Shown in pieces: positions 1 through 18,898 of a stretch of DNA of 64,000 nucleotides. Numbering within the stretch: the stretch's first letter is position 1; each line of letters opens with the position of its first letter. A program made the position numbers and the translations under genes. The notes below the pieces were generated by a model. The model did no database searches, had not been told where the DNA came from, and worked only from the letters and a program-made list of their open reading frames with translations. The stretch comes from Alphaproteobacteria bacterium. Lineage in GTDB: Bacteria; Pseudomonadota; Alphaproteobacteria; JACZXZ01. The stretch lies in the NCBI GenBank assembly GCA_035294245.1, contig DATGLG010000067.1, positions 173,726 to 237,725 on the forward strand, in the 5' to 3' direction.

Positions 1-276
1 CAGCAGCGAGACGGGAATCATCACCTTGACGGTCGTGGCGAGCGCGTCGAGCCAGGCCGCGCTGCCGAAGAACTTCTCGTACCATTGCAGGGAGAAGCCC
101 GGCGGCGGGAAGCTCAAGAAGGGGGCCGAGCTGAAGGAGATGATGATAACAATGGCAAGCGGCGCCAGCATCATCACGACGACGAGGGCGCAGACGAGGA
201 AGCGCAGGAGCGCCCACCAGCGGATCGCCGGGACTGCGAGCCGCGGCCGGGTCGGGGCGGCGAGGGTCGCGGTCAT
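1..276 (-). CDS. ABC transporter permease (PotC/PotI-like), truncated by window edge (start at 276, 3' end beyond position 1)
   Basis: Reverse-strand translation from ATG at 276..274 gives MTATLAAPTRPRLAVPAIRWWALLRFLVCALVVVMMLAPLAIVIIISFSS..., a typical permease N-terminus. ATGA start/stop overlap with upstream permease gene. Confidence 0.55.
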   Translation of the reverse strand, partial: MTATLAAPTRPRLAVPAIRWWALLRFLVCALVVVMMLAPLAIVIIISFSSAPFLSFPPPGFSLQWYEKFFGSAAWLDALATTVKVMIPVSLL

Positions 277-1130
277 CGTGCCCAGCCCGCCCGTGCCGCC
301 GTCGCGCGGCGGATGAGCGCGAAGCTGATCGCCGTTCCCACCAGGAGGATCATGGCGAGCGCCGCAGCGAGGCCCCAATTTCCGAAATCCTCGATCTGGA
401 TGAGAATGAGCTGCGCGATCATGACGTCTTGCCGGCCGCCGAGCAGGGCCGGCGTGATGAAGTAGCCGAGCGAGATGATGAAGACGAGGGCACAGCCGGT
501 GAGGGCGCCGGGCAGGCTGAGCTGGAGATAGACGCGCAGGAAGTTGCGCCAGGGCGGCGCCCCGAGCGTCGCCGCCGCCTGGGTGTAGAGAGGATCGATC
601 TTCGTCAGCACGGAATAGAGCGGCAGGATCATGAAGGGGAGCTGCACCTGCACCATGCCGATGAGGACGCCGATGCGGTTGTAGATGAGGTCCGCCGGCG
701 TCTTCAGCAGACCGAGGCCGATCAGCATGTCGTTGATGAGCCCGTCCCGCTGCAGCACCACCATCCAGGCGAAAGTGCGCACAAGAAGGCTCGTCCAGAA
801 CGGGACGAGGACGATGAACACGAGAAAGCGGCGCGCGCGCGCGCCCGCATGGGCCATGGTATAGGCGACGGGATAGCCGATCGCGAGGCAGAGGGCCGTG
901 ACCGAGGCGCTGATGACGATGGTGTTCCAGAAGACGCGCAGATAGACGGGCTGCTGGAGCGCGCTCGCATAGTTCTGCAAGCCCCAGACGGGCTCGTTCA
1001 CGCTGCGCAGGAGAAGCCAGCCGACGGGATAGAGGAACACCACGAGGAGCAGCAGAACCGCGGGAGTCACCAGCCAGGCGCGGCCGTCGATGCCCTCCGC
1101 CGCCGTGCCTCCGATGCGGCCGATCCTCAT
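273..1130 (-). CDS. ABC transporter permease, spermidine/putrescine type (PotB/PotH-like)
   Basis: 285-aa ORF; six-TM permease with EAA-like loop; operon position between SBP and second permease. Confidence 0.8.
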   Translation of the reverse strand: MRIGRIGGTAAEGIDGRAWLVTPAVLLLLVVFLYPVGWLLLRSVNEPVWGLQNYASALQQPVYLRVFWNTIVISASVTALCLAIGYPVAYTMAHAGARARRFLVFIVLVPFWTSLLVRTFAWMVVLQRDGLINDMLIGLGLLKTPADLIYNRIGVLIGMVQVQLPFMILPLYSVLTKIDPLYTQAAATLGAPPWRNFLRVYLQLSLPGALTGCALVFIISLGYFITPALLGGRQDVMIAQLILIQIEDFGNWGLAAALAMILLVGTAISFALIRRATAARAGWAR

Positions 1131-1203
1131 GCGCCGCCACTAAGGTCGCCCCGCGGGGCGCGGAAGACGTCGAGGTTGCAAGTCGCCGTCCTGCTTCGCG
1201 CCG

Positions 1204-2325
1204 CTATGAGAGCTTCCACAAGGTCCAACGGTCCTGCAGCGTCTTCAGATGGTCGCGCCAGTATTCGGCGTTGAGGAGAAAGCCCTTGTCGGCATTCGCG
1301 GGGTTGGTTGCGAGCCACGGTGCGATATCCTTGTCGATCCAGGCGAAGGCCTTGGGATTGGTCGGCGAGTAGGCGACGAGATTGGCGACTTTCGCCTGGT
1401 TCTCCGCCACCGTCATCTCGTCGATCAGGCCCATGGCGAGCGGCAGATGCTTGCTTCCCTTCGGCACCACGAGATAATCGATCGATTGGATGTTCTGGTT
1501 CCACTCGATCGCCAGCTTGCCGCCTTTCTTGACCGCGTCATAGGCGCGCCCGTTGAGGATGGTGCCGCAGGCGATCTCGCCGTCGACCAGGAGCTGCTGG
1601 GACTGGGAGTTGGTCTGCCAGAAGATGATGTCGTTCTTGATGGTGTTGAGCTTGGCGAAGGCGCGCTCGACATCGAGGGGATAGAGCTTGTCCGGCGGCA
1701 CGCCGTCGGCCATGAGGGCGATCTCCATGTTGGGCGAGGCGCTGTCGTTGAGCGCGCGCTTGCCGGGAAAGCGCTTGACGTCGAAGACGTCCGCCCAGCT
1801 CTTCGGATGGTTGTCGCCGGAAAACGTGCGCGTGCTGTAGCCGATATTGTAGGACCACACGATATTGCCGATGCCATAGGGATTCACATAGGCCGGCTTG
1901 ACCCGCGCGACGTCCACCGCCTTGGTGTCGATCTTCTCCAGAAGCCCGTCCTTGGCGACGTTGTAGAGCATGGCGTCGGTCACGTCGACGACGTCCCAGA
2001 TCGGATCGCCCGATTCCGCCATGGCGCGGAACTTGGCGACGCTGACGGGTCCGTCTTGAACCACCATCGCCCCCGTTTTCTGCGCGAAGGGATCGCAATA
2101 GGCGACCTTCTCGGCATCCTGATAGGCGCCGCCCCAGCTCGCGAAGACGACGCGCTGGCCCGCGAACTTGCCCGCAGCACGGGCTGGGCGGGCGAGGGCG
2201 CCGGCACTCGCGGCGGCCAATGCCCCGCCGGTCACGGCGAGGAAGGCGCGGCGCGTGAATTCGGGATCGCGTCCGCGGCATCCCTCGGCACCGGCGGGCT
2301 TGCTCGGAATCTTGTCCTTGTTCAT
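1204..2325 (-). CDS. ABC transporter periplasmic substrate-binding protein, polyamine type (PotD/PotF-like), Tat/Sec signal
   Basis: Real start is MNKDKIPSK... (ATG rc at 2325), with RRAFLAVTGGALAAASAGALA signal. The longer 846-aa ORF is an antisense artefact. PotD/PotF-family similarity by eye. Confidence 0.8.
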   Translation of the reverse strand: MNKDKIPSKPAGAEGCRGRDPEFTRRAFLAVTGGALAAASAGALARPARAAGKFAGQRVVFASWGGAYQDAEKVAYCDPFAQKTGAMVVQDGPVSVAKFRAMAESGDPIWDVVDVTDAMLYNVAKDGLLEKIDTKAVDVARVKPAYVNPYGIGNIVWSYNIGYSTRTFSGDNHPKSWADVFDVKRFPGKRALNDSASPNMEIALMADGVPPDKLYPLDVERAFAKLNTIKNDIIFWQTNSQSQQLLVDGEIACGTILNGRAYDAVKKGGKLAIEWNQNIQSIDYLVVPKGSKHLPLAMGLIDEMTVAENQAKVANLVAYSPTNPKAFAWIDKDIAPWLATNPANADKGFLLNAEYWRDHLKTLQDRWTLWKLS

Positions 2326-2465
2326 GGCTTGAACCCTCTCCCAGAAATCCGCGCGCGGACCCGGCCCGCGGCGCGCACACTCCCGCTCCCGCGCCCCCTT
2401 CTCTCGCCGCGCGTTTCGCGCGGGCGACGGCGCCGTCTCGCAGCGACGGCGCTCCGGCGGCATGA

Positions 2466-2483
2466 TTGTTTGTATAGAAACAA
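2466..2483. promoter_or_regulatory. Near-perfect palindrome TTGTTTG-TATA-GAAACAA in AT-rich divergent promoter region between pot-like operon and Rieske oxygenase gene
   Basis: Seen directly; 7-4-7 inverted repeat inside an AT-rich patch of otherwise GC-rich DNA. Confidence 0.3.
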
Positions 2484-2589
2484 ATCCTGTGCTTAAATAA
2501 AAGGGGATTCTTCCGCGGGCGGCACGGGATGAGGGCTTCGGCGCGAGGCCGCGGGCGAAGGGTCGGAACCAACCAGGACGAGGACGGCC

Positions 2590-3768
2590 ATGAACGCACC
2601 AGCTGCTTTGGGACAGCTCCTTCCCCTCGAGGCCTATACTTCGGACGAGTGGTTCCGCGCCGAGCAGGCCAAGCTGTTCGGCAAGGCCTGGGTCTTCGCG
2701 GGCATGGCCGAGGACCTGAGGGCGCCGGGCGATTACCAATGCGTCGATTCCGGCGCGTCCTCGCTGATTCTCCTGCGCGACAGACAGGGCGAGCTGCGCG
2801 CCTTCCACAATGTGTGCCGCCACCGCGGCGCGCGCCTGCTGGAAGGGCGCGGCAATGTGGGGAGCGCCATCACCTGCTTCTATCACAATTGGACCTATGA
2901 GCTGAGCGGCGCCTTGACCGGCGTCACCCTCGGGCGCGACCAGTTTCCCGGCATCGACAAGTCCTGCTATGGCCTGCGCCGGGCCCAGGTGGGGCGCTGG
3001 AAGAACCTCGTCTTCGTGAATCCCGATCCCGCCGCGGAATCCTTCGACGACTGGCTCGCCGGGGTGCCGGAGGCGCGCACCCTCAACGAGCCGGGCCAGC
3101 TCGCGCTCCACGATCCCGAGCGGCTGGTCGAGGTGTCGAGCGTGCGCTACCGCGTGCACGCCAATTGGAAGATCGTCGTCGAGAACTTCATCGACGGCTA
3201 TCACCTCCCGCTGCTGCACAAGGTCTCCCTCGGCGACGGCGATTTCATGAGGCAGAAATGGGCGCCGCGCGGCCGCCACGTCACCTTCTACCGCCCGCTC
3301 AAGCCCGGCATCTCCTATAACGACCAGCCCTTGCCGGTGATCGAGGGCATCCCGCCCACCTATGGTCTCGCCTATTACTGGCTCTTCCCCAGCGTGGCGA
3401 TCACCGAGACCGCGACCTTCTGGACGACCTTCCACGTCATCCCTCTCTCGGCCCGGGACAGCATCGTCCACAGTCGCCTGCGCGCGATGCCCGAGGCGCT
3501 CGCGCGCAAGGGCAGCCGGCAGGTGGCGGTGAACCAGGCGCTGCCGCGCCACGTGATCAGCGCCGAAGGTCCCTATGCGGAGATGCGGCTCGACCTGAGC
3601 GAGACCCATCCGCTCCAGTCGAACAACGTCATGGCCGAGGACATTTATGCCTGCGAGGCGGTGCAGCGGGGCATGGACTCGGGCTCCTGCGAGATCGGCC
3701 CCCTCTCCAAATGGGAATCGACTCTGACCTTCTTCCAGAAGCACGTGCTCGATTATATGGGGGCGTGA
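2590..3768 (+). CDS. Rieske (2Fe-2S) non-heme iron oxygenase alpha subunit, stand-alone (GbcA/CntA-like architecture)
   Basis: 392 aa; Rieske motif CRHRG...CFYHNW (CxH-x17-CxxH); catalytic domain with conserved His/Asp region. No beta subunit or reductase adjacent. Confidence 0.85.
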   Translation: MNAPAALGQLLPLEAYTSDEWFRAEQAKLFGKAWVFAGMAEDLRAPGDYQCVDSGASSLILLRDRQGELRAFHNVCRHRGARLLEGRGNVGSAITCFYHNWTYELSGALTGVTLGRDQFPGIDKSCYGLRRAQVGRWKNLVFVNPDPAAESFDDWLAGVPEARTLNEPGQLALHDPERLVEVSSVRYRVHANWKIVVENFIDGYHLPLLHKVSLGDGDFMRQKWAPRGRHVTFYRPLKPGISYNDQPLPVIEGIPPTYGLAYYWLFPSVAITETATFWTTFHVIPLSARDSIVHSRLRAMPEALARKGSRQVAVNQALPRHVISAEGPYAEMRLDLSETHPLQSNNVMAEDIYACEAVQRGMDSGSCEIGPLSKWESTLTFFQKHVLDYMGA

Positions 3769-3795
3769 GGCGCTTCGATTCGATCGAAGATCATC

Positions 3796-3911
3796 GTCAC
3801 CCCGGCCGACCCCGGATTGATCCGGGGAAGAGCCGGGCCCCAGCTTGAAGCGATGTCGCAGTGCTGGGCCCCGGATCGCGCCGCGCTGCCGCGCAGCTTG
3901 TCCGGGGTGAC
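3796..3911 (+). repeat. 116-bp MITE/REP-like structured repeat element, copy A (12-bp terminal inverted repeats gtcaccccggcc...ggccggggtgac)
   Basis: ~90% identical to the reverse complement of 5807..5922. Internal hairpins; no coding capacity. Confidence 0.65.
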
Positions 3912-4044
3912 GACGAGTGGAGCAAAATCCTACTTGATTCAGCAGCGAATGCAGGCAATCGTCGCGAAGCGATGACGTCGCGGATCACGAGCCAGCTCGG
4001 AGTCAAGACGCACGATCCCGTAATTCTTAGTAAGCTTATTTTAT

Positions 4045-4809
4045 CTAGGCTGCGCCGCCCGGTCGGCGCGCGCGCCGCTTGACAAATGCCGAAGCCGCAA
4101 GCTCCCGCTGCCCGGCCGGCTCCCGGCCTGCCGCGGCAAACAGGCTGAGCGCGAACCAAGAAGAGAATGCCTCCACCTCGCCACGCGACCCATCAAGACG
4201 AAGCCGGCCGTCGCGAATGGCGCTCTGGATTGGAACGTGGCCAAGCCAGATTTGTGTGAGGACACGCAAATTGGCTTCGACGAAAAGGTCGACGTCGAAG
4301 CCGGGATCGCGATAGCACAGATCGACAGCGCCGCGCTCGAAGACCAACCAGTAACGGCGTCGGCTGATCGGCACGCCGGAGAGTCGGAATTCGACGACCA
4401 ACCGCCGATTCCGCCTCGGCGCATGGGCCGCAACGTTGCGGCGAATGTCCCACATCAAAAGATCGGGGTCCAAATTCGCGGTATCGACGAGATCATGACG
4501 GAGCCAGCGCTGCGCCCAGAGCCCCATTTTCTCGACCACCGGGAAAAGCTCCCGGCCGGCCGCCGTCAGGTGATACTCGACGCCGCCACCCTCTCTGCGC
4601 CGACGCTCGACGATACCGGCGAACTGCAGCTGCCTGAGACGTTGCGTCAGCAGCGCCGACGACATTCGCGGCACCCCGCGCTGCAGATCGTTGAAGCGGA
4701 CGCTGCCGCACAACAGCTCCCGGATGACCAGCGGCATCCATCGCTCGGCCAATATCTCGGCCGCAAGGGCAATCGGACAGAACTGGCCGTATCCGCGTCT
4801 CTCAGCCAT
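4045..4809 (-). CDS. HxlR-family (MarR-like winged-helix) transcriptional regulator with ~130-aa C-terminal extension
   Basis: Start MAERRGYGQFCPIALAAEILAERWMPLVIRELL... is the HxlR signature. Last ~20 codons lie inside the duplicated junction segment 4015..4105. Confidence 0.75.
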   Translation of the reverse strand: MAERRGYGQFCPIALAAEILAERWMPLVIRELLCGSVRFNDLQRGVPRMSSALLTQRLRQLQFAGIVERRRREGGGVEYHLTAAGRELFPVVEKMGLWAQRWLRHDLVDTANLDPDLLMWDIRRNVAAHAPRRNRRLVVEFRLSGVPISRRRYWLVFERGAVDLCYRDPGFDVDLFVEANLRVLTQIWLGHVPIQSAIRDGRLRLDGSRGEVEAFSSWFALSLFAAAGREPAGQRELAASAFVKRRARRPGGAA

Positions 4810-4818
4810 GCCATATCC

Positions 4819-4888
4819 TAGCAAGAAACCACGTCGTGGCCACTTCACATTTTAAAGTTGAGGGCTCGGGCAGTCGGGGCGAAGCTCT
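4819..4888 (+). promoter_or_regulatory. ~70-bp promoter/operator module (copy 1) containing palindrome ccacgtcgtgg, upstream of PEP-CTERM gene and divergent from hxlR
   Basis: Recurs at 5952..6018 upstream of the ACAD-family gene (agcaagaaa...cacttcaca(t/a)tt(t/g)aa(a)gttga(g/a)ggctcgggc(a/g)gtcggggcgaagctctc). Confidence 0.4.
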
Positions 4889-4953
4889 CACACCGGGACA
4901 TGCGCGGCTCTCAAAGAGCATTACCCTCGTCGTCTTCTGCGAAGGAGACGTTT

Positions 4954-5742
4954 ATGTCGAATGGTAATTCCTTGGGCTTTCCGAACGGCGTACGCGCCGC
5001 GCTGCTCGTTGTCGCCGCCATACTGGCCAACACGAGCGCAGCAACTGCGGGCGTGTGGCAGTCGGGCGACGAGATCACTTACACCCAAGTCTCGTGGCCC
5101 GACAATGCGACGGCTGCCGCGCTGCTCACCGACCATTACAGCAGCGTGTATCTGTCCACCTCCGACGTTTTTGAGGTGGGCATCCCCGGCCCGAGCGGCT
5201 TTTCATTAAGCTTTGGCGATGCGTCGCATGTGCTGGCCTTTTTGCCCGAGGCCGGTATACCTGGGCCGCTCACCCAAAGTCAGACTAATCCCGGCTCCAG
5301 CGAATCCGGTCTGTTCGCTGGCGATGTGATGGCGTTGAAATTGGACGTTGACTTTTCGGATGCGGGGCTTCTGCTGGGCAGCTCCGGGATTCCGTTCGGG
5401 GACCTCGTCCTCAGCAACTTCCTGGTCGAAACATCCGACGCGGACCTCAACGGCTTAACCGTGCGCGAGTTTCTGGCCGACGACAACATGGCACTCGGTG
5501 GCGGTCCCAGCCTGAAACCCATCGCTATCATGGACTCGATTACCGAAGACGTGAATATTGCTTTTGATGGCGGTATCGTGACCCCGTTCGCGCAGGATCA
5601 TCTCGTGGCCCCCAGCATGCCCGTCTCTGCCGTGCCGGAGCCGTCCAGTTGGGTTCTGCTCGGCGCCGGGCTGGCGGCCCTCGCCGCGACCCGGCGCTGG
5701 CGAAAAACTAAAATCGGCGGCGGTCTCAAGCGCGTCTCGTGA
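4954..5742 (+). CDS. PEP-CTERM sorting-domain secreted protein
   Basis: RBS aaggag then ATG; signal peptide MSNGNSLGFPNGVRAALLVVAAILANTSAATA; C-terminus VPEPSSWVLLGAGLAALAATRRWRK is a PEP-CTERM motif. Confidence 0.75.
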   Translation: MSNGNSLGFPNGVRAALLVVAAILANTSAATAGVWQSGDEITYTQVSWPDNATAAALLTDHYSSVYLSTSDVFEVGIPGPSGFSLSFGDASHVLAFLPEAGIPGPLTQSQTNPGSSESGLFAGDVMALKLDVDFSDAGLLLGSSGIPFGDLVLSNFLVETSDADLNGLTVREFLADDNMALGGGPSLKPIAIMDSITEDVNIAFDGGIVTPFAQDHLVAPSMPVSAVPEPSSWVLLGAGLAALAATRRWRKTKIGGGLKRVS

Positions 5743-5806
5743 GTCGTAGAGAAGGCGATTGCGCTCCGGATTGGCTGGAGAAGGGCAGTTGCATCCGTTT
5801 TTATTC

Positions 5807-5922
5807 GTCACCCCGGACAAGCCGTGCGAAAGCACGGCGCGATCCGGGGCCCAGTACTGCGACATCGCTTCAAGCTGGGCCCCGGCTTCCCCCGGATCAC
5901 GTTCGGGGTCGGCCGGGGTGAC
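5807..5922 (+). repeat. 116-bp MITE/REP-like structured repeat element, copy B (inverted relative to copy A)
   Basis: gtcaccccggac...gtcggccggggtgac. Contains gccgtgc-gaaa-gcacggc hairpin and long imperfect hairpin gatccggggcccag...ctgggccccgg. Confidence 0.65.
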
Positions 5923-5951
5923 ATGGGGGAATCGAAATGAGAGACGTTAAT

Positions 5952-6018
5952 CACGAGCAAGAAAAAGCGTCTCCTCCACTTCACATATTGAAGTTGAAGG
6001 CTCGGGCGGTCGGGGCGA
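5952..6018 (+). promoter_or_regulatory. ~70-bp promoter/operator module (copy 2) upstream of ACAD-family gene
   Basis: Paralogous to 4819..4888; ORF-track translations of both contain ARAVGAKLS. Confidence 0.4.
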
Positions 6019-6050
6019 AGCTCTCGCGGACGCCCAAATCGAGGTCCGCC

Positions 6051-7184
6051 ATGTCCCGATCTCTCGACCTGGAAGCGCTTGCGGAGAGCATTGGACCGCG
6101 CTTTGCCGAGGGCGCGGCCGAGCGCGATCAAGGCGACGTCTTCGTATCGGGACACTACGATATTCTGAAAGAGCACAAGGTCTTTTCGGCGCTGGTTCCT
6201 GTCGAGCTCGGGGGTGCCGGTGCGCGCCATAGCGCCATGTGCGCCTTTCTGCGGCGGCTCGCCCATTATTGCCCATCGACGGCGCTGGCGCTGTCCATGC
6301 ACCAGCACCTCGTCGCGGCCGCGGTCTACCACCACCTCAACGGCAGGCCCGGAAAGGCGCTGCTGGAGCGGGTTGCAGCCAACGAGACGGTTCTCATCTC
6401 GACCGGCGCCAATGATTGGATGGAATCGAGCGGCACCATGGAGCGCGCCGCCGGCGGCTACCGCGTCAGCGCCAGAAAGCCGTTCGGCAGCGGTTCGCCT
6501 AAGGGCGGGGTCCTGGTGACCTCCGCGACGTTTAACGATCCCAAGGACGGCTGGCAGGTCCTGCATTTCGCCGTTCCTTTCGCCGCGCCCGGGATTTCGC
6601 TGGCCGATGATTGGCGCGCGCTCGGCATGCGCTCAACCGGCTCCCACACGATCGTTCTGGATAACGTCTTCGTGCCGGATGATGCGATCGCGCTGCGGCG
6701 GCCGCGCGGCCGGTTCCATCCCGCCTGGAATGTGATTCTGACTGTGGCAATGCCGCTGATTATGTCGGTTTACGCCGGGGTCGCAGAGGCTGCTGCGGCG
6801 ATTGGAGGCGAGCAGGCAAAAAAGCGCTCGAATGATCCAGCCGTGCCGTATCTGCTCGGCGAGCTGGCCAACGAGCTGACGACGGTCCAGCTTGCCATTG
6901 CCGACATGGTTCGCCTCGCCAACGACTTCGATTTCGCCATGAAGCTGGAGGTTGCCAACGCCATGCTGGTGCGCAAGACGATCGTCGCCGAGCATGTGCT
7001 GTCGACGGTGGAAAAGGCATTGGAGGCGGCCGGCGGCGCCGGCTTTTATCGTCCTGCCGGGCTCGAGCGGCTGTTGCGCGACGCCCATGGCGCGCAATTC
7101 CATCCCCTCTCAGCGAAACGCCAGCACCGGTTCACCGGCCGCATTGCGCTCGGCCTCGATCCTATCGCGGATGCGCCGGCCTGA
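6051..7184 (+). CDS. Acyl-CoA dehydrogenase family flavoprotein (possibly ACAD-type flavin monooxygenase)
   Basis: 378 aa from MSRSLDLEALAESIGPRF...; ACAD N/middle/C domain architecture by eye. Exact substrate unknown. Confidence 0.7.
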   Translation: MSRSLDLEALAESIGPRFAEGAAERDQGDVFVSGHYDILKEHKVFSALVPVELGGAGARHSAMCAFLRRLAHYCPSTALALSMHQHLVAAAVYHHLNGRPGKALLERVAANETVLISTGANDWMESSGTMERAAGGYRVSARKPFGSGSPKGGVLVTSATFNDPKDGWQVLHFAVPFAAPGISLADDWRALGMRSTGSHTIVLDNVFVPDDAIALRRPRGRFHPAWNVILTVAMPLIMSVYAGVAEAAAAIGGEQAKKRSNDPAVPYLLGELANELTTVQLAIADMVRLANDFDFAMKLEVANAMLVRKTIVAEHVLSTVEKALEAAGGAGFYRPAGLERLLRDAHGAQFHPLSAKRQHRFTGRIALGLDPIADAPA

Positions 7185-7196
7185 AGTCTGGGAGCA

Positions 7197-7300
7197 GTCG
7201 TGGGGTGGACGCCGGCTCCTGCGAGATCGGCTCCCTCTCCAAATGGGAATCGACGCTGCCTTTCTTCCAGAAGCACGTGCTCGACGATATGGGGGTGTGA
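7197..7300 (+). pseudogene. Remnant 3' end (34 codons plus stop) of a Rieske oxygenase gene; duplicate of 3670..3773
   Basis: Reads ...RGVDAGSCEIGSLSKWESTLPFFQKHVLDDMGV* versus RGMDSGSCEIGPLSKWESTLTFFQKHVLDYMGA* in the intact gene. No upstream coding body. Confidence 0.55.
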
Positions 7301-7637
7301 GGCTCTCCCGAGAGCGAGGTCATTGCGAGCGCCCGCGGCCGAGCCAGCAAGGCGGCGGGAGCGCGGCAATCCAGTCTCCTGGATCGCCACGATCGCGGAG
7401 CCTGTCCTCGGGCCGGCTTTCAGCCGGACCCGTGGGCGATCTCGCGATGATGGTTGCGACGCGACAAGGACGTCACCGCGAGCCGGAGGGGAAGCTTTGC
7501 GATGACGACGGGCCCGTGATTCTGCGCCGCTCCCGTAACCCTTAGTAAACTTATCTGGTCTAGGCTGCGCCGCCTGATCGGCGAGCGCGACGCTTGACAA
7601 ATGTCGATGCCGCAGGCGCCGCTCAGGATTCGAGCCT

Positions 7638-9875
7638 GTGAGAGCCTGGACCATCATGAGACGGCGCGGCGAGGTTTCGCGGAATAAGGAAAAGGAAGAG
7701 GCGGCGGATGCGGCCGCCCCGGCGGTCGCCACGGAGCGCAAGGGCTGGCGCCGGCGGTTGAAATTCTGGCGCCGCGGCACGGCGGCCCCGCGCCGCCCGC
7801 GCAAGGCGCGCAAGCCGCGGCGGCGCTCCTTCCTGAGGAACATCCGCATCGGCCTGCGCATCTGGGCGCTCGCCGGCCTCGGCGCCGCCGGCATCGCCGC
7901 CCTCTCGGCCTCCTATCTCGTCACCGACAATCGCATCAGCGCCGCCATGGCCGCGACCGCGGCGGACGAGCATTTCGCCCGCCTGGTGAACAAGGTCGCC
8001 GGCGTCATCGCGCGGATGCACACCGACGAGACCACCTATCTCCTCGCGCGGGACACGCAGTTCTCCTCGCAATTCCAGTCGGACGCCGTCGACGCCGATA
8101 CCGCCCTCTCCCTCGTCGAGCACGATCCGGTCGAGCCCGCCGTCGATGCCAAGGTGAAGGCGCTCCGCAGCGCCCTCGGCAAATATGTCGGCCAGTTCAA
8201 CATGGTCGACATGACCTTGAGCGCCATGGCCGGGGAGGGGCAGAACCTGCAAGTGACCCTCGCCGCCGCCGCCAAGGCGATCGAGGACGGCATCGCGGCG
8301 GCCCATGCGGATGCGCTCCGCGCCATGTTCCTCGAGCTCCGGGAGAGCGAGGCGGATTTCCGCCTCACCACCGATGCCAAATACGTGGCGGCCTTCGATA
8401 AGCTCGTCGCCGGCTTCGCCGCGGCGCTGCAAAAGGCGGAGATCGACGCTACGGCGAAGGCCAAGCTCGCCGAGGCCCTCGACCATTACAAGGCCGCCTT
8501 GCACGACTACGCCGACAAGGCGACGGCGCTCGCAGCGCAAACGACCAAGCTGCGCGCCGCCTATGGCGAGCTCGAGGCGCTGCCCGGCAGCCTCTACGAG
8601 GCGACGAGCCAGATGCGCGACAAGGTTGAGCTCACCGCCGACGAGGCGCGGCGCTCGGGCCGCGCCACCATGACGGCGCTCTGCATCGGCATCTTCTCCC
8701 TCTTCATGATCGTGACGTTTGTGCTCTCACGCAGCATCGGCCGGCCGCTGCGGCGCATCATCGCGGTGGTGCGGCGGGTCGCCGATGGCGATGCCGATGT
8801 CGAGGTGACGATCGATCTCGTCGGCCGCGACGAGGTGGGTGCGATGGCCGAGGCCGTCGAGGTTTTCAAGGCCAATGCCCGCGAGCGTGAGCGCCTGCAG
8901 GCGGAGCAGGCCGAGGCGGCGCAGGCGGCGGCGGCCGAGCGCGAGAGGCGCCGCATCGAGGATGCCGAGCGCGCCCGTGCGGAGGCCGAGCGCGCCGAGG
9001 CCCTGCGCCGCGAGGCCGATGCCGAGCGCCGGCGCATGCTCCAGGAGCTCGCCCAGGCGCTCGAGCAGAACATGCAGGCCCTGACCACGGCGGTGAGCGG
9101 GGCCGCAAGCGAGCTGCGCATGACGGCCGAGGGCATGGCTGCGACGGCCTCGACCGCGGGGCAGCAATCGGCGGCGGTGGCCGCCGCCTCGGAGCAGGCC
9201 TCGGGCAATGTCCAGGCGGTCGCCTCGGCGACGGAGGAGCTCGCCGCCTCGATCGCCGAGATCGGGCGCCAGGTCAGCCAGTCAACCGAGGTCGCCCGCA
9301 AGGCGGTGGCGCGCGCGCAGGATACGAGCAAGACCATCGAGAGCCTGGCCGAGGCGGCGCAGCGGATCGGGCAGGTCATCGATCTCATCAACGACATCGC
9401 CAGCCAGACCAATCTCCTGGCGCTCAACGCCACGATCGAGGCGGCGCGCGCGGGGGAGGCCGGCAAGGGCTTCGCCGTGGTCGCCGCCGAGGTCAAGGCC
9501 CTCGCCAGCCAGACCGCCAAGGCGACCGAGGAGATCGGCAGCCAGATCGGCGAGATGCAGCAGGCGACCCGCACGGCGGTCGCGGCGATCGAGGGCATCC
9601 GCAGCACCATCGCCGAGGTGAGCGAGACCGCGACGGCGATCGAGGCCGCGGTGGGCCAGCAGGGGGCCGCGACCGGGGAGATCGCCCAGAATATCCAGCG
9701 CGCGGCGGCCGGCACGCAGGAGGTCTCGACCAACATCGCCGGCATTACCGACGCCATCGACCGCACCGGCGGCTCGGCGAGCCGCGTGCTCACCGCGGCG
9801 AACGATCTCGCCGGCCAGGCGGACCGCCTCGATACGGAAGTCAAGCGCTTCGTCGGGCAAATCCGCGCGATGTAG
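7638..9875 (+). CDS. Methyl-accepting chemotaxis protein (two TM segments, periplasmic sensor, HAMP, Ala/Glu/Arg-rich linker, MCP signalling domain)
   Basis: Signalling-domain hallmark [37 protein letters not shown]. Exact start uncertain (alternative ATG at 7656). Upstream ttgaca at 7596. Confidence 0.85.
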
Positions 9876-10145
9876 CGCGCCCGCGCTGCGGCGCCATTCT
9901 CATGAAGCGTTGACGCGTAAGCGACCAGGCGGCGAAGCGCCGCACTTGCGCGCATCCGCCGATTTAACTAAGTCTTAGGCGCGCAAGCGCATCATCGGAC
10001 GCCAAGCGCGCAAGCGCGTCGTCGAGCCCGACCCCATGCCGCCTCCGAGCGGCATGCTGCACGCCCCACAGTCGCGGCGGTCGGCACGCGGCTCCCGCAC
10101 AGGGCGAGGCGCGGGAGAGGTCGGGCGCACGCAAAGGAGGATCGC

Positions 10146-10844
10146 CTGAAGATCATCAGTTGGAACCTGCTGCGTCTCGTCGGCGCCGCAGTCGAGGATG
10201 TCGCCGCACTCGTCGAGCGCGAGCATCCCGATCTCCTCCTCATGCAGGAGGCCACCAGGGCGGTCGAGGCGCTGCCGGCGCTGATCGGCGGGCATTTCCA
10301 TCGCCGGCCGCTGCCCACGCGCATCCACGGCCTCGCCGCCTGGAGCCCCCATTTCCTGCCGACGCCCGAGGTGCTGCCGCTGCCGGTCTCGCCCATGCCC
10401 GGGCGCCTGCCCCAGCGCATCGCCCAGCTGGTGCGGCTCGGCGATGTGACCTTCGCCAATGTCCATCTCTCCCACGGCCAGCTCCTCAATCGCCGCCAGC
10501 TCCTGCGCATCGCCCAGGCGCTGAGCGGGCCCGCCGCCGTCATCGGCGATTACAACGCCGTCGGTCCGATCCTGCTGCGCGGCTTCCGCGACGTGGGGCC
10601 GCGCGAGCCGACCCATCTCGCGCGCAATGTGCTGCCCTTCCGCCTCGATCGCTGCCTCGTGCGCGGGCTGAAATGCCTCGAGGCGCGCGCGCTCGATCGC
10701 GGCCCCTCGGATCACCGCCCGATCCTGCTCGATTTGCGGGTCGCCATGGCGGCGGCAACCACCCGCGCCATGCCCCATGCCGCCCATGACAGCGCGCCCG
10801 TCGCGGCGAATGGCCTCGCCGCCGCGGAAATCGCGGCGTTGTGA
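10146..10844 (+). CDS. Endonuclease/exonuclease/phosphatase (EEP) family protein; non-canonical or missing start
   Basis: Conserved N-terminus LKIISWNLLRL... lies upstream of the first ATG (10242) and follows RBS aaggagg (10134..10140). No in-frame ATG/GTG/TTG seen; CTG at 10146 is possible. Confidence 0.55.
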   Translation: MKIISWNLLRLVGAAVEDVAALVEREHPDLLLMQEATRAVEALPALIGGHFHRRPLPTRIHGLAAWSPHFLPTPEVLPLPVSPMPGRLPQRIAQLVRLGDVTFANVHLSHGQLLNRRQLLRIAQALSGPAAVIGDYNAVGPILLRGFRDVGPREPTHLARNVLPFRLDRCLVRGLKCLEARALDRGPSDHRPILLDLRVAMAAATTRAMPHAAHDSAPVAANGLAAAEIAAL

Positions 10845-11015
10845 GGCGCGGCTGCGGGCGCATGCGCGTTTGCGTCGCTACCGCCTTATAATCGCGGGAT
10901 GATCACGGCTTCGGGGGATGCGGGGGGATGCCAACGTCGCCCCCCTTGGGCGCGCCCCTGCATCCACCAGATATTGTAGGTCGAGGCCCCGCGTCTCGGC
11001 GCCGGGGCGAGAGCC

Positions 11016-11669
11016 ATGCACGCCATCGATCATCTCATCTGGGCCTGTCCCGATCTCGCCGCCGGCAGCGCGATCCTTGAAGGCCTGATCGGCACCACCC
11101 CCGCGGCCGGTGGCAGCCATCCCGGCGGCGGCACGCGCAACGCCTTGATCGGCCTGGGAAAGCGCTGCTATCTCGAGATCATCGCTCCCGATCCGGCCCA
11201 AGATCCGGCGGGCACCCCGGCAGAATGGATGGGCCGGCTCGCCCGGCCCGGGCTGGTGAGCTGGGCGCTCGCCGCCTGCGATCTCGGCGCGCTCGCCGCA
11301 CGGCTCGCCGTGCTCTCCATCCACACCAAGGGTGTCGTCGCCATGTCGCGCCGGAATCCCGACGGCACTTTGCTGCGCTGGGAGGTCCTGCGCCTCGCCG
11401 GCCATGCGTTCGGCCCGGTGGTGCCGTTCTTCATCGACTGGCTGGAGACACCGCATCCGGCCGCCGCCCTCCCCGCCGCCGGCGCCTTGCGGCGCCTCGA
11501 GATCCGCCACCCCCAGGCGGAGGCCCTGCGCCGGCTCTTCGTGGCACTTTCCCTCGATGTGCCGGTCGCTTCCGGCACCTTGCCGGCGCTCGCGGCCGTG
11601 CTGGAGACCCCGCGGGGGAAGGTCCCCCTTGCGGCCGCCGAGCCCATGCCCCCGCGCTGGCGGGATTGA
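11016..11669 (+). CDS. VOC/glyoxalase-like domain protein
   Basis: 217-aa ORF, glyoxalase-like fold by eye; TATAAT at 10887..10892 upstream. Confidence 0.6.
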   Translation: MHAIDHLIWACPDLAAGSAILEGLIGTTPAAGGSHPGGGTRNALIGLGKRCYLEIIAPDPAQDPAGTPAEWMGRLARPGLVSWALAACDLGALAARLAVLSIHTKGVVAMSRRNPDGTLLRWEVLRLAGHAFGPVVPFFIDWLETPHPAAALPAAGALRRLEIRHPQAEALRRLFVALSLDVPVASGTLPALAAVLETPRGKVPLAAAEPMPPRWRD

Positions 11670-11685
11670 GCCGAGCTCGCGGGTC

Positions 11686-13920
11686 TCAGTTCCCGACGAG
11701 GGCCGCCTTGATCCGCGCCGGGGTGAAGGGAACCGTGCGCAGCCGCGCGCCGGTGGCGTCGAAGATGGCATTGGCGAGGGCCGCGGCGACGGGGCTCGCG
11801 GCCGCCTCCCCGGCGCCGAACGGCCGCAGCTCCGGCCGGTTGATGAGAGCCACTTCGATCGCCGGCGCCTCGGGAAAGGCGAGGATGGGATAGCTCGCCC
11901 AATCCACGCTCGTCACCCGCTCGCGATCGAAGGTCACCTCCTCGTGGAGGGCGCGGCTCAGGGTCTGAACGATGCCGCCCTCGACCTGGTTCTTCAGCGC
12001 ATCGGGATTGATGATCAGCCCGCAATCATGGGCGCAGGCGACGCGGCGCACCCGCACCTCGCCGCTCGCGCGGTCGACGGCCACCTCCATCGCCATCGCC
12101 ACGTAGTTCTCGGCATGCTTGTAATGGACATAGGCGAGGCCGCGGCCGAGGGCGAGATTACCTTGGAGCGCTTGCGGATTTGGCCCGGGTCGCGCATCCC
12201 AGCGGAAGAGCTCGGCGGCCCGCGTCAGAACGGCAATGCCGCGCGGATCGTCGAGGCCGCGCAGGCGGAACGCCAGGGCGTCCGCCTTGGCCGCTGCTGC
12301 CAGCTCATCAACGAAGCCCTCGACGGCGAAGACATTGGCGATCTTCCCGGGCGCGCGAATGTTGGAGGGACGGAGCGGCGTGTCCTTGAGCCAGTGCACG
12401 CGCACCTGCACATGGGCCAGCTTGTAATCGGGGTCGGCGTTCTGGGAGATGAGCCCCGTCGAGAGTCCTTCGCGCTGACTCAGCCCCGCCGCTGCGGGAG
12501 CGAGGAGGGGCACGTTCGGCAGGCCGCGCGTCGCCTCGGGGAGCCACATCTCGGTCTCCCAGGCGAAGAGGCGGCCCTCGCCGTCGAGCCCGGCGCGGAG
12601 ATCGAGGAGCTGGGGCGGACCCTTGGGGTCCCAGCCATGCTCGTCCGCGCGCATCCATTGCACGCGCACCGGCCTTCCCACTGCCCGGGACATCAGCGCC
12701 GCATCCGCCGCGGCGTCGTCATGGCCATTCATGCCATAGCAGCCGGCGCCGTCGAGATAGACGAGGCGCACCTTCTCCTCGGGCAAGTCCAGCATCCTGG
12801 CGAAGGCCGGGCGGAACTTGTGGGTGGCCTGGGAAGCGGTCCAGATGATCGCCCGATCGGGATGCACATCGGCGACGGCGCAGGAGGGGCCGAGAGAGGC
12901 GTGGCTCTGGCAGGGCCAGTAATAGGTTGCGGCGAGGCGTCGCGCGGCGTGCGCGAGGGCGCCGCGCTCGCCGCGCTCGACCAGGGTCTCGTCGCGCGCG
13001 ACGGGGCTCGCGCGCACCACACGGGCGAGATTCTCGCTGCCCGGGAGTCCGCCGCCGCCCTCCCAGCGGGCCTTGAGCTCCCGGGCGGCCCGGATCGCCG
13101 CCCATTCGTCTGCCGCCACGACGCCGAGGAAGTCGCGGATGCGAACAATGCGGACTCCGGGGAGGCGGGCGATCGAGGACTCGTCGACGGAGATCAGGCG
13201 CGCGCCGATCGCCGGCGGGCGGATGGCGCGGCCATGGAGCATGCCGGGCACTGTGAAATCATGGACATAGACATGGGTGCCGGTGCATTTGGCGGGGAGA
13301 TCGGGCCGCGGCAGCGGCCGGCCGACGATGGTATAGCGGCCCGGGTCCTTGAGCGGCGCCTTGGCATCGACGGGGAGGGCGAATTGCCGCCCTCCGAAGA
13401 GCGCGCCGAGATCGAGCGTGACGTCGCCACTCACGCTGCGCAGTGCGCCGTCCGCGATGGTGAGCTCGCTCGCTGGGCGGCCAAGGCGCTCGGCACCGAG
13501 GCGCAGCAGGGCCTCGCGCGCCGTCGCCGCCGCCTGGCGAATCTGCACGCCGCCGCGGGTGACTCCGGAGCTTCCCGAGGTCGGCCCCTGATTCGGGGTG
13601 AGGGCCGTGTCCCCCTCGACGAGGGCGATGCGATCGACGGCGATCCCCAGCTCCTCCGCCACCATCTGGCGCATGGCGATGCGCAACCCGGTGCCGAGAT
13701 CGACCTTGCCGGTGAAGACGGTGACCGAGCCGTCGCCGTGGATGGCGAGGAAGCTGTCGACCTGATGAAGATCCAGAGGCTTGCCGAGATCGGCATCCGA
13801 GCCGAGCAGCGCCTGGGCCAGGGCGCGCGAGGCAGGAGCGGCGCCCAAGGCGAATCCGACCACCAGAGCGCCGCCGGACTTGAGCAGGTCGCGGCGGGAA
13901 AGCGCGGGCATGCATCCCAT
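11686..13920 (-). CDS. Molybdopterin-binding large subunit of two-subunit aldehyde oxidase/xanthine dehydrogenase family enzyme (isoquinoline 1-oxidoreductase beta, IorB-like), Tat signal
   Basis: Start MGCMPALSRRDLLKSGGALVVGFALGAAPA (twin-arginine); 744 aa; IorB/aldehyde dehydrogenase Mo-binding family similarity. The 923-aa ORF is an N-terminal over-extension. Confidence 0.85.
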   Translation of the reverse strand: MGCMPALSRRDLLKSGGALVVGFALGAAPASRALAQALLGSDADLGKPLDLHQVDSFLAIHGDGSVTVFTGKVDLGTGLRIAMRQMVAEELGIAVDRIALVEGDTALTPNQGPTSGSSGVTRGGVQIRQAAATAREALLRLGAERLGRPASELTIADGALRSVSGDVTLDLGALFGGRQFALPVDAKAPLKDPGRYTIVGRPLPRPDLPAKCTGTHVYVHDFTVPGMLHGRAIRPPAIGARLISVDESSIARLPGVRIVRIRDFLGVVAADEWAAIRAARELKARWEGGGGLPGSENLARVVRASPVARDETLVERGERGALAHAARRLAATYYWPCQSHASLGPSCAVADVHPDRAIIWTASQATHKFRPAFARMLDLPEEKVRLVYLDGAGCYGMNGHDDAAADAALMSRAVGRPVRVQWMRADEHGWDPKGPPQLLDLRAGLDGEGRLFAWETEMWLPEATRGLPNVPLLAPAAAGLSQREGLSTGLISQNADPDYKLAHVQVRVHWLKDTPLRPSNIRAPGKIANVFAVEGFVDELAAAAKADALAFRLRGLDDPRGIAVLTRAAELFRWDARPGPNPQALQGNLALGRGLAYVHYKHAENYVAMAMEVAVDRASGEVRVRRVACAHDCGLIINPDALKNQVEGGIVQTLSRALHEEVTFDRERVTSVDWASYPILAFPEAPAIEVALINRPELRPFGAGEAAASPVAAALANAIFDATGARLRTVPFTPARIKAALVGN

Positions 13921-13931
13921 GATCGCCTCCC

Positions 13932-14393
13932 TCAGGCGCCCGCCGCGCGCTGCACCGCCCGCAGAATGCGCGTATGGGTGCCGCAGCGGCAGAGGTTGCC
14001 GGCGAGCTCCTGCTTGATGTCGTCGAGGGACGGCTTGGGATTGCGATCGAGCAGGGCTTTTGCCGTCATGATCATGCCGTTGGTGCAATAGCCGCATTGG
14101 GCCGCCTGCTCGGCGATGAAGGCGGCCTGGACCGGGTGCGGCTGGTCCGGCGTGCCCAGGCCCTCGAGGGTGACGACGGCGCGGCCCGCGGCCTCGCTCA
14201 CCGGGACTTGGCAGGAACGCGCAGGGTTGCCGTCGATGAGCACGGTGCAGGCACCGCATTGCCCCAGGCCGCAGCCGAATTTCGGGCCGTGCAAGCCGAG
14301 GGCGTTGCGCAGAACGTAGAGAAGTGGTTGAGCCGGATCCCAGGACTCGACCGTGCGGGAGCTGCCATTCACCTGGATGTCGTACATCGCCAT
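13932..14393 (-). CDS. (2Fe-2S)-binding small subunit (IorA-like)
   Basis: 153 aa MAMYDIQVNG...; two Fe-S motifs CGLGQCGACT and CGYC...CRCG. Confidence 0.85.
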   Translation of the reverse strand: MAMYDIQVNGSSRTVESWDPAQPLLYVLRNALGLHGPKFGCGLGQCGACTVLIDGNPARSCQVPVSEAAGRAVVTLEGLGTPDQPHPVQAAFIAEQAAQCGYCTNGMIMTAKALLDRNPKPSLDDIKQELAGNLCRCGTHTRILRAVQRAAGA

Positions 14394-14579
14394 GGCGCAC
14401 CTTCGACCGTGAGCGGGCGGAAGCCGGAAGCATGATCCCAAATCGCGGCGCTGACAACGACGCCCGGGCTCGCGCACGCGATCGTGTAGCGGCCCAAGTC
14501 TGGTCGAGATTTTGCTTTGCCTCGACGGATTTGGCCGCCTAATCTCGGCGCCGATCAGAGAACCGAGGAGAGAGCGGCG

Positions 14580-15503
14580 ATGCGGGTAGCAATCATCGGC
14601 CAGCAGGATTTCGGCAAGGCGGTACTCGAGGCGTTCCTCGCGCGCGGCGACGAGGTGGCGGGAGTCTTCGTCTCCCCCGAGAAGCCGGGGGCCCGTCCCG
14701 ACCCCTTGCGCCAAGCCGCCGAGACGAAAGGCCTTAGGGTCTTCCAGATCGCCAAGTTCACCGAGGCGACGGCCCATGATGCCTTGCGCGGGCTCGCGGC
14801 CGATATCGGCATCATGGCCTATGTCCTCTCCTTCGTGCCCCAGAGCTTCTGCGCCATCCCCCGCCACGGCACCATCCAGTACCATCCCTCGCTGCTGCCC
14901 CTCCATCGCGGGCCGTCCTCGATCAACTGGCCGATCATCAAGGGCTTCACCAAGACGGGGCTGACCATCTTTCGCCCCACCGACGGGCTCGACGAGGGGC
15001 CGATCGTGCTCCAGAAGGAGGTCGAGATCGGCCCCGACGACACCCTGGGCTCGGTCTATTTCGACAAGCTCTTCCCTCAAGGCGTCGCGGCGATGCTCGA
15101 GGCGGCGAACCTCGTCATCGCCGGCAAGGCGAAGGAGCGGATCCAGGACGAGGAACAGGCGACCTATGAGGGCTGGGTCCGCACGGCTGAATCGCGCATC
15201 ACCTGGGCCCATCCCATCGACCAGACCTACAACCTCATTCGCGGCTGCAATCCCCAGCCCGGCGCGTGGACGACGCTCGGCGGCAAGAAGCTCTTCCTCT
15301 TCGATGCGCGCAAGCGGATCGCGCGTACCTTCGGCGAGGTGCGGGGCAAGAAGATCGGCCAGGTGGTGGCGGTAGGCGAGAAGAGCTTCACCGTGCACGG
15401 CCAGGGCGGCTTCATCGAGGTCTTCCGCTGCCGCTTCGAGGATGGGAAAAAAATCGCGGCGAACGAGGCCGGGATTGCCGAGGGTGCCCTTCTCGAAAGC
15501 TGA
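14580..15503 (+). CDS. Formyltransferase family protein (Fmt-like, N-terminal formyl transferase plus C-terminal domain)
   Basis: MRVAIIGQQDFGK...; HPSLLPLHRGPSSINW motif region typical of formyl transferases. Confidence 0.75.
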   Translation: MRVAIIGQQDFGKAVLEAFLARGDEVAGVFVSPEKPGARPDPLRQAAETKGLRVFQIAKFTEATAHDALRGLAADIGIMAYVLSFVPQSFCAIPRHGTIQYHPSLLPLHRGPSSINWPIIKGFTKTGLTIFRPTDGLDEGPIVLQKEVEIGPDDTLGSVYFDKLFPQGVAAMLEAANLVIAGKAKERIQDEEQATYEGWVRTAESRITWAHPIDQTYNLIRGCNPQPGAWTTLGGKKLFLFDARKRIARTFGEVRGKKIGQVVAVGEKSFTVHGQGGFIEVFRCRFEDGKKIAANEAGIAEGALLES

Positions 15504-15521
15504 GGGTTGCTGCGGCTGGGA

Positions 15522-18830: not shown

Positions 18831-18898
18831 GGGTCAGCCGGCGCGCAGCCGAGGGCGGCGCCTGGCGAAGGGGGGCGGGAGCCGTCGCCCGCCGTCGC

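Follow-up and report, generated by a model that had tools for sequence, protein, structure and literature searches.

The 64,000-nucleotide stretch of the alphaproteobacterial contig DATGLG010000067.1 (assembly GCA_035294245.1, positions 173,726 to 237,725 of the forward strand), referred to here as the window, carries a divergent gene pair that encodes an HxlR-family regulator and an ACAD-fold protein, inserted between a Rieske oxygenase gene and a methyl-accepting chemotaxis protein (MCP) gene and bracketed by two pairs of direct repeats. As a recombination scar, this locus adds a further example to a known kind and does not constitute a new kind of system. The account that we favour, although tentatively, is that the hxlR-ACAD module was placed at this site by integrase-independent illegitimate or one-sided-homology recombination, in which about 450 bp of the target were duplicated. 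The genes concerned are listed below, with the GC content at third codon positions (GC3).

2590 to 3768, plus strand: alpha subunit of a Rieske non-haem iron oxygenase, GbcA-like (below the family cut-off; Pfam Rieske and Ring_hydroxyl_A, NCBIfam); GC3 0.88
4045 to 4809, minus strand: HxlR-family regulator with an SCP2-like C-terminal domain, 254 amino acids (AA) (Pfam HxlR); GC3 0.75
4954 to 5742, plus strand: PEP-CTERM protein gene (Pfam PEP-CTERM); GC3 0.73
6051 to 7184, plus strand: ACAD-fold protein (Pfam; NCBIfam HsaA/SfnB/DszC-like, all below cut-off), probably a flavin-dependent monooxygenase; GC3 0.77
7656 to 9875, plus strand: MCP, a host-type gene (Pfam HAMP and MCPsignal); GC3 0.92

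The repeats that flank the three central genes, here called the cargo, consist of two blocks, A and B, each present on both sides.

3660 to 3774, plus strand: block A1, the 3' end of the Rieske gene with its stop codon and 6 nt further
4013 to 4110, plus strand: block B1, a copy of the MCP-upstream sequence that now forms the 3' tail and 3' flank of hxlR
7191 to 7306, plus strand: block A2, a displaced Rieske 3' remnant with a 31-codon open reading frame (ORF; 7205-7300) and no gene body
7528 to 7625, plus strand: block B2, contiguous with the MCP gene and ending about 30 nt upstream of its start codon

Both repeat pairs are real and lie far beyond chance. In a BLASTN search of positions 3600-7700 against the 64-kb window, block A (3660-3774 versus 7191-7306) matched with 87.1 % identity over 116 columns (E 6e-34) and block B (4013-4105 versus 7528-7620) with 83.9 % over 93 nt (E 1.5e-22). 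A repeat search returned A (3667-3774 and 7199-7306) at 88 % with an offset of 3532 and B (4013-4105 and 7528-7620) at 84 % with an offset of 3515. A local alignment of the two repeat regions reached a score of 224, compared to 22 ± 2.6 for shuffles, with a weak prolongation of B to 4110 and 7625. The longest stretches of uninterrupted identity measure 23, 22 and 18 nt in block A and 16 nt in block B, and two motifs of block B have two exact matches each in the window, where about zero are expected. No third copy of A or B was found in the window by BLASTN or in 109 fetched loci that carry homologues of window genes (labelled L0xx). Apart from A and B, the self-search of 3600-7700 yielded only two further pairs, both within the same 4 kb, namely a direct repeat (D4) and an inverted one (E).

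A preliminary description of this locus, made from the sequence alone, had reported the recurrence of the Rieske tail and of a second block upstream of the MCP gene. Both recurrences were confirmed at the sites given, with copy-2 positions that were off by about 5 nt, and its proviso that the blocks might lack significant identity is answered by the two E-values above. However, it had also assigned the same offset of about 3520 bp to both pairs and described a continuous direct repeat of about 415 bp. The offsets differ by 17 nt, and in the two units, which span 446 bp (3660-4105) and 430 bp (7191-7620), homology is confined to the two end blocks and is missing from the middle.

The spacers between A and B measure 220-240 bp, and a different palindromic element is found in each. 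In global and local alignments, spacer 1 (3775-4012) and spacer 2 (7307-7527) were no more similar than shuffles, with or without the 118-nt element E1 and with or without element F.

3796 to 3913, plus strand: element E1, a 118-nt palindromic element in spacer 1, resembling repetitive extragenic palindromes or miniature inverted-repeat transposable elements (REP/MITE-like), with a 12-bp terminal stem
5805 to 5922, inverted relative to E1: element E2, within the nested PEP-CTERM insertion described below
about 7320 to 7450, plus strand: element F, a palindromic element in spacer 2, distinct from E; DNA fold z -3.1

E1 and E2 form an inverted repeat pair of 118 nt with 90 % identity. The element is a long hairpin closed by GTCACCCCGG.../...CCGGGGTGAC, with DNA fold z-scores of -4.9 and -6.2, the former for E1. 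One copy lies 3' of the Rieske stop and the other 3' of the PEP-CTERM stop. Element E has no Rfam match and no further copy in the window or the 109 fetched loci, and an Rfam search at E <= 1 over 3000-8500 returned nothing. Element F has imperfect terminal inverted repeats (TCATTGCGAGCGCCC and GGGCGATCTCGCGATGA) and is unrelated to E. The preliminary description had regarded copy 1 as carrying an additional element of 116 bp. The element is present at 118 nt, but copy 2 contains its own palindrome, F, and copy 1 therefore does not equal copy 2 with one element added; the inverted second copy at 5805-5922 had been missed. An inversion between the inverted E copies was also considered and rejected, as it restores no canonical arrangement.

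The Rieske gene is intact, and its final 36 or so codons are block A1. Translation of the two A copies gives the tails DAGSCEIGSLSKWESTLPFFQKHVLDDMGV and DSGSCEIGPLSKWESTLTFFQKHVLDYMGA, each followed by a stop, in agreement with the earlier view of a remnant that keeps frame and stop and has no gene body. Over 31 codons, A2 differs from A1 in 5 non-synonymous and 2 synonymous codons, with 9 nt changed in total. Among these is a replacement of Pro by Ser in the GP(L/M)S motif, at a position that is invariant in 40 homologues. At four of four polarisable positions A1 has the commonest residue of the family, although the Pro and Asp of A2 are also seen in a few homologues; the terminal A/V position is too variable to be polarised. 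Based on these residues and the change at the invariant Pro, A2 is the decaying copy. Since A2 is far nearer to the resident Rieske gene than to any other homologue, it stems from the same or a very close lineage. The JGI gene call on 7205-7300 lists a 31-AA protein gene, which is actually a pseudogene fragment. Given the substrate requirements of RecA, excision by homologous recombination between such short identical runs should be rare today.

The cargo meets the repeats at two junctions.

4087 to 4105, no strand: junction J1, where the end of hxlR passes into the right end of block B
7179 to 7193, no strand: junction J2, where the ACAD stop (7182-7184) meets the Rieske remnant

An alignment with 10 homologues showed that the family-conserved part of HxlR extends through codon 240 (4090-4092), where the homologues end with ...GQRELAAS/T and a stop. 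The window DNA tracks the family through ...GAGCTTGCGGCTTCG and then has GCA (4087-4089), where the module-bearing loci L025 and L026 have TAA or TAG. The resulting read-through extension of 14 codons (nt 4048-4089) is provided by B1, with the stop at 4045-4047. Past the hxlR stop, the homology between L025 and L026 continues for 50 nt or more, whereas the window sequence is that of block B from there on; because this shared 3' flank is missing, the module was cut right at the hxlR stop. HxlR has thousands of homologues, of which the best 120 are 76-88 % identical, and about 100 of these 120 listed homologues are 239-241 AA long. The final 20 codons of hxlR lie within repeat copy 1, in block B1, as described earlier, and the suggestion that its C-terminus was created by the event is borne out by the roughly 100 homologues that end at residue 240 and by the replacement of the family stop with GCA.

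The counterpart of J1 in B2 reads ...GCGCCTGCGGCATCG/ACATTTGTC, and the end of hxlR and B2 share the extended microhomology TGCGGCnTCG, with 13 of 16 nt matching. On the minus strand, B2 offers only a 20-residue reading and no gene body. At J2, the sequence matches L025 as far as the TGA and A1 from about 7191 onwards, and GCCTG is common to this site and 3648-3652. The Rieske remnant starts about 7 nt past the ACAD stop at 7182-7184, which agrees with the earlier description of the remnant as abutting this stop. At both junctions, foreign and resident sequences share microhomology without long homology (TGCGGCnTCG at J1, GCCTG at J2), as is the case for illegitimate recombination, and both look like illegitimate joins at short or imperfect microhomology. 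Joints at extended microhomologies with mismatches or gaps have been documented for illegitimate recombination in Acinetobacter (bioRxiv 10.1101/2023.11.22.568220).

The origin of the cargo can be traced through its relatives. In L025, L026 and L028/L029, hxlR is the divergent neighbour of an ACAD-fold gene, and a metagenome scan added 79 loci. Of the 52 relatives whose HxlR identity is at least 70 % and whose upstream sequence is long enough, 47 have a start-to-start gap of 96-128 nt between hxlR and the ACAD gene, with a mode of 105-109. The same gap measures 1241 nt in the window, where it is split by a 1.07-kb insertion. On either side of this insertion, window positions 4094-4889 and 5958-7184 are collinear with the uninterrupted L026 (6244-5449 and 5516-4301) at 86 % and 89 % DNA identity; for L025 the values are 87 % and 84 %. 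The window ACAD gene is 89 % identical to that of L026 at the nucleotide level and 91 % at the amino acid level. Overall, the DNA relatives of the module are metagenomic, 84-92 % identical and located in other contexts, while the closest non-self protein relatives of the flanking genes reach 70 % (Rieske) and 61 % (MCP). The GC3 values of the cargo genes (0.73-0.77) contrast with those of their neighbours (0.86-0.92) and with the window mean of 0.84 ± 0.05 over 41 ORFs. Because of this low GC3 and the presence of DNA relatives at 84-92 %, which the flanks lack, the cargo is, judged by composition and ancestry, foreign or accessory DNA related to modules of Xanthobacteraceae/Bradyrhizobium-type genomes. 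The preliminary description had proposed accessory DNA and suggested a comparison of composition with the flanks; the accessory character of the cargo is supported by these values.

The two halves of the module differ in their nearest relatives. For hxlR, the nearest neighbour is L025 (88.2 %; 881 of 1000 bootstraps), which places it outside the clade of L026, L031 and L032. The 5' half of the ACAD gene falls within this clade, with 90-92 % identity versus 82 % to L025, and its nearest neighbour was L026 or L032 in 970 of 1000 bootstraps; the remaining 30 gave L031, and L025 was never the nearest. When L028 served as outgroup, the window grouped with L026 at 51 informative sites and with L025 at 16. 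The module of the window is a phylogenetic mosaic, which fits recombination among diverged alleles at the hxlR-ACAD locus. Direct repeats of at least 30 nt around the module were absent from L025, L026, L028 and L029. None of the 84 module loci contained a homologue of the Rieske, PEP-CTERM or MCP gene, or DNA resembling the copy-1 repeat or E1, and the only match to the copy-2 repeat or F among them was a 26-nt stretch in L041.

The preliminary description had treated the cargo as one three-gene block and had missed that it is composite, consisting of the hxlR-ACAD pair and a nested insertion that carries the PEP-CTERM gene.

4820 to 4889, plus strand: D4-1, the copy of the hxlR-ACAD intergenic region on the hxlR side, with the palindrome CCACTTCAcATtTTnAAGTTG at 4842
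4890 to 5955, plus strand: nested insertion of 1,066 bp with the PEP-CTERM gene (4954-5742) and element E2 (5805-5922)
5956 to 6025, plus strand: D4-2, the ACAD-proximal copy of the intergenic region, with the palindrome at 5978

D4-1 and D4-2 form a 70-nt direct repeat with 84 % identity. The intergenic region is split such that 10 nt and D4-1 remain next to hxlR, and D4-2 and 25 nt remain next to the ACAD gene; aligned to L026, the flanks of the nested insertion overlap by 68 nt. Neither the insertion nor a homologue of its PEP-CTERM gene was found in any of the 84 module loci. From this comparison with uninterrupted relatives, the PEP-CTERM segment is best described as a separate, later insertion into the putative hxlR-ACAD promoter region, accompanied by a duplication of 68-70 nt. 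An affinity of D4-1 to L025 that was seen by eye did not hold up on comparison.

Each D4 copy contains the palindrome CCACTTCAnATnTTnAAGTTG (4842-4868 and 5978-6004), which occurs exactly twice in the 64-kb window. In 29 of the 47 canonical loci, this palindrome (ACTTCA..AAGT; CCACTTCA-N-AAGTTG) lies at a constant distance of about 32 nt from the start of hxlR, and it is likely the HxlR operator. Since the insertion duplicated 68-70 nt, hxlR, the PEP-CTERM gene and the ACAD gene each keep a copy of this putative operator, and the duplication would have put the PEP-CTERM gene behind a copy of the putative ACAD promoter/operator. In five loci (L036, L043, L068, L070 and L071), relatives of hxlR with 78-84 % identity have neither an ACAD neighbour nor an upstream palindrome, so the module is occasionally broken up elsewhere.

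The PEP-CTERM protein is a member of a large family, with 1500 representatives at E <= 1e-3, the nearest of which shows 79 % identity. Its N-terminal domain of about 190 residues has no Pfam model and is repeated two to four times in relatives of 400-1700 AA. A hairpin (CGTCTTCTGCGAAGGAGACG) at 4931-4950, which stops 3 nt short of the ATG, includes the GGAG ribosome-binding site of the gene and may block the initiation of translation.

Read from left to right, the locus shows an intact Rieske gene that runs through A1 and spacer 1 into B1, which is fused at the extended microhomology to the end of hxlR, destroying its stop and adding 14 codons. At the other end, a 5-nt microhomology links the ACAD stop to a second Rieske copy (A2), which is entered 36 codons ahead of its end and is followed by spacer 2 and B2, leading straight on into the MCP gene. 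According to the favoured account, the inserted segment, comprising A1, spacer 1, B1 and the module, would form a loop within the Rieske gene. The resident 3' end, the intergenic region and the stretch upstream of the MCP gene (A2, spacer 2 and B2) would have been displaced downstream, where A2 would decay and B2 would still serve the MCP gene. Two routes could lead to this arrangement. One is homology-facilitated illegitimate recombination, in which a putative homologous anchor would lie in the Rieske gene or upstream of it and the ACAD end would be joined illegitimately. In the other, both ends of the module would be joined illegitimately to sister chromosomes, at positions that are staggered. 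Only outcomes that leave the Rieske 3' end and the region upstream of the MCP gene intact would be retained by selection, which would account for the survival of the duplication. The PEP-CTERM insertion would follow the same logic one level down, with the divergent promoter region entered under a 68-70-nt duplication. We favour this insertion of a loop because it involves one event and no recombinase, because it accounts for a pair of microhomology junctions whose arbitrary positions happen to leave both cargo genes unharmed, and because close precedents exist.

Orphan 3' ends in arrays of type VI secretion system (T6SS) effector and Rhs genes have been proposed to result from the displacement of an old 3' end via one-sided homology (PMC5361080). 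The locus resembles these arrays, and those of contact-dependent inhibition (CDI) genes, in the order of an intact gene, new DNA and an orphan 3' fragment, with distal microhomology and no recombinase. Unlike them, it reflects a single event at a metabolic gene instead of a toxin/immunity array, and the duplication extends through the intergenic region to the upstream sequence of the next gene. In S. pneumoniae merodiploidy, incoming DNA that bridges sister chromosomes (inter-chromatid integration) creates duplications (PMC3784515). The likeness to these cases and to A. baylyi lies in staggered sister-chromosome bridging that leads to duplication and in joints with mismatched, gapped microhomology. 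However, those are IS-mediated duplications (IS, insertion sequence) of 100-900 kb or patches of at most about 100 bp, in contrast to the 3.1-kb insert and the duplication of about 450 bp found here.

Several points weigh against this account. The spacers are non-homologous even though A and B are 84-88 % identical, which calls either for several indels or insertions of elements at a later time or for a donor that had diverged. The ACAD-side junction lies 0-7 nt from the stop, a position that a random illegitimate join would reach only with selection or luck. The 13/16 match at J1 could indicate that B2 was copied from a B1 linked to hxlR, in which case duplication with a later deletion would be favoured. 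The D4 copies are 84 % identical to each other versus 79-86 % to their orthologues, and D4 alone is neutral in this respect, as its similarity does not separate an in-situ duplication from two alleles. Finally, no relative has an empty site or a donor-like arrangement. A protein scan of genome contigs with the Rieske sequence gave a best match of 64 %, in different contexts, and the contexts of the Rieske/MCP relatives P0004, P0013, P0016 and P0122 showed no common downstream gene order; what P0016 has in common with the window is limited to the ABC transporter that lies upstream of the Rieske gene. All 8-12 assemblies that contain these genes, recognised by contigs with identical Rieske, ACAD or MCP proteins, have the occupied site at an identity of at least 99.97 %. 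Neither an empty site nor a circular form was found among them, and the uninterrupted Rieske-intergenic-MCP junction that the preliminary description had suggested looking for was not encountered. For this reason, we infer the order of events, their direction and the pathway from one clonal population.

Among the alternatives, a single crossover of the Campbell type, in which a circle with the module and a segment A-spacer-B recombined with the chromosomal A-spacer-B to leave a copy on each side, was the interpretation originally put forward, and we consider it unlikely. Collinear direct repeats of a homologous segment bracket foreign cargo, as after the integration of a suicide plasmid, which is an exact topological fit, and at a time when the copies were less diverged, the identical runs of 18-23 nt in A could have sustained exchange by RecA. 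Nevertheless, this is only one among topologically equivalent routes. The circle would already need illegitimate junctions at the hxlR stop and the ACAD stop, and prior insertion, imprecise excision and transfer amount to three events instead of one. The 220-240 bp in the middle of the repeat are non-homologous, and the cargo has no vector, replication, mobilisation or recombinase gene. In the cargo and flanking genes, Pfam detected only HxlR, PEP-CTERM, ACAD, Rieske, MCP and ABC domains and no recombinase; no recombinase, transposase or IS was present in the cargo or within ±10 kb (Pfam, precomputed gene tables), no transfer RNA gene in 1-20000 (tRNA scan), no core of an attachment (att) site, and no plasmid match to 3600-7700 (megablast). 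The repeats around the cargo stood, with Campbell integration as a possible but less probable route to them.

Bacteria frequently form tandem duplications and reduce them again, which speaks for an in-situ history, although we regard it as rather improbable. Here, the module would already have been located next to the Rieske gene when 3.5 kb, from Rieske codon ~357 to the ACAD stop, were tandemly duplicated, and a deletion of almost the entire second copy would then have left A2, spacer 2 and B2. The roughly 6 non-synonymous and 4 synonymous-type changes in A are compatible with a constrained and a neutral copy diverging from identity, and about 16 nt of B2 resemble a native hxlR end. On the other hand, the deletion must begin no more than ~20 nt from the hxlR stop and leave B2 about 30 nt from the MCP start codon, a separate earlier acquisition of the foreign module is still needed, and the spacers would be expected to be alignable at about 82 %, which is not the case. 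The simpler form of this idea in the preliminary description, a tandem duplication followed by divergence, is not supported. The two blocks of about 100 nt are doubled and the cargo is not; hxlR, the PEP-CTERM gene and the ACAD gene are single-copy, with only A, B, D4 and E repeated according to BLASTN.

It is quite doubtful that both nested structures (3.1 kb with about 450 bp duplicated, 1.07 kb with 68-70 nt) derive from one shared replication-coupled, recombinase-independent route, which may have taken the form of long-patch double illegitimate recombination or inter-chromatid bridging. If true, such a route would leave long target duplications, and cassettes would land in operon boundaries and divergent promoters with the neighbours spared.

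A decayed integrase-driven element is very improbable. Such an element would have targeted the Rieske 3' end, brought a replacement 3' end and later lost its integrase, as an element of the e14/icd type. In the e14 prophage, icd runs into the prophage and the pseudogene icdC is located at the opposite end (PMC13626634). The architecture matches, with a functional 3' end inside the inserted DNA and a diverged C-terminal pseudogene copy at the far side; A1 reconstitutes the Rieske gene and the A2 remnant lies beyond the cargo, as expected of an e14-type target gene. However, no integrase, excisionase or remnant thereof is present among the three ordinary cargo genes or the intergenic ORFs. The left boundaries (3648-3660 and 7179-7191) have only GCCTG in common instead of an att core, the long identical runs lie inside A, and the repeats are 84-88 % identical with non-homologous middles. 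Furthermore, the cargo is a 3.1-kb chromosomal module of housekeeping type without an element context in any of the 84 module loci. Lastly, the possibility that the similarity of A and B reflects chance, convergence or a dispersed repeat family, with no duplication scar behind it, is practically nil, as chance is excluded by the shuffle scores and the E-values of 6e-34 and 1.5e-22, the blocks are collinear at near-equal spacing, the in-frame gene tail is far nearer to the resident Rieske gene than to any of 40 homologues, and further copies number zero in the window and the 109 loci.

Upstream of the Rieske gene, two further genes complete the neighbourhood.

273 to 1130, minus strand: ABC permease (Pfam/NCBIfam); GC3 0.89
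1204 to 2325, minus strand: PotD-like binding protein (Pfam/NCBIfam); GC3 0.86

The PotD-like ABC transporter divergently adjoins the GbcA-like Rieske gene (window 273-3768), and a matching arrangement is located beside a 63 %-identical Rieske homologue (L023 3812-9153), which suggests a conserved uptake-plus-oxygenase unit. More distant Rieske homologues (52-53 %; L008 5340-7176, L011 10001-12825) are followed by a convergent HxlR-like gene (44 %) without an ACAD gene, and Rieske/HxlR adjacency therefore recurs in unrelated genomes. A sigma-70 promoter scan returned no promoter, and the TTGACA in block B lacks a -10 partner.

The locus provides a base-pair-resolved case of a chromosome that takes up a foreign regulator/enzyme pair without mobile-element machinery. 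For genome annotation, this means that the 31-AA 'gene' at 7205-7300 has to be treated as a pseudogene fragment and that hxlR exceeds the length of its family by 14 codons. The duplication of the target would have kept the neighbours intact, while the regulator gained a 14-residue tail and the displaced gene tail decays. A second insertion would have repeated the trick, placing the PEP-CTERM gene behind a copy of the module's putative operator region.

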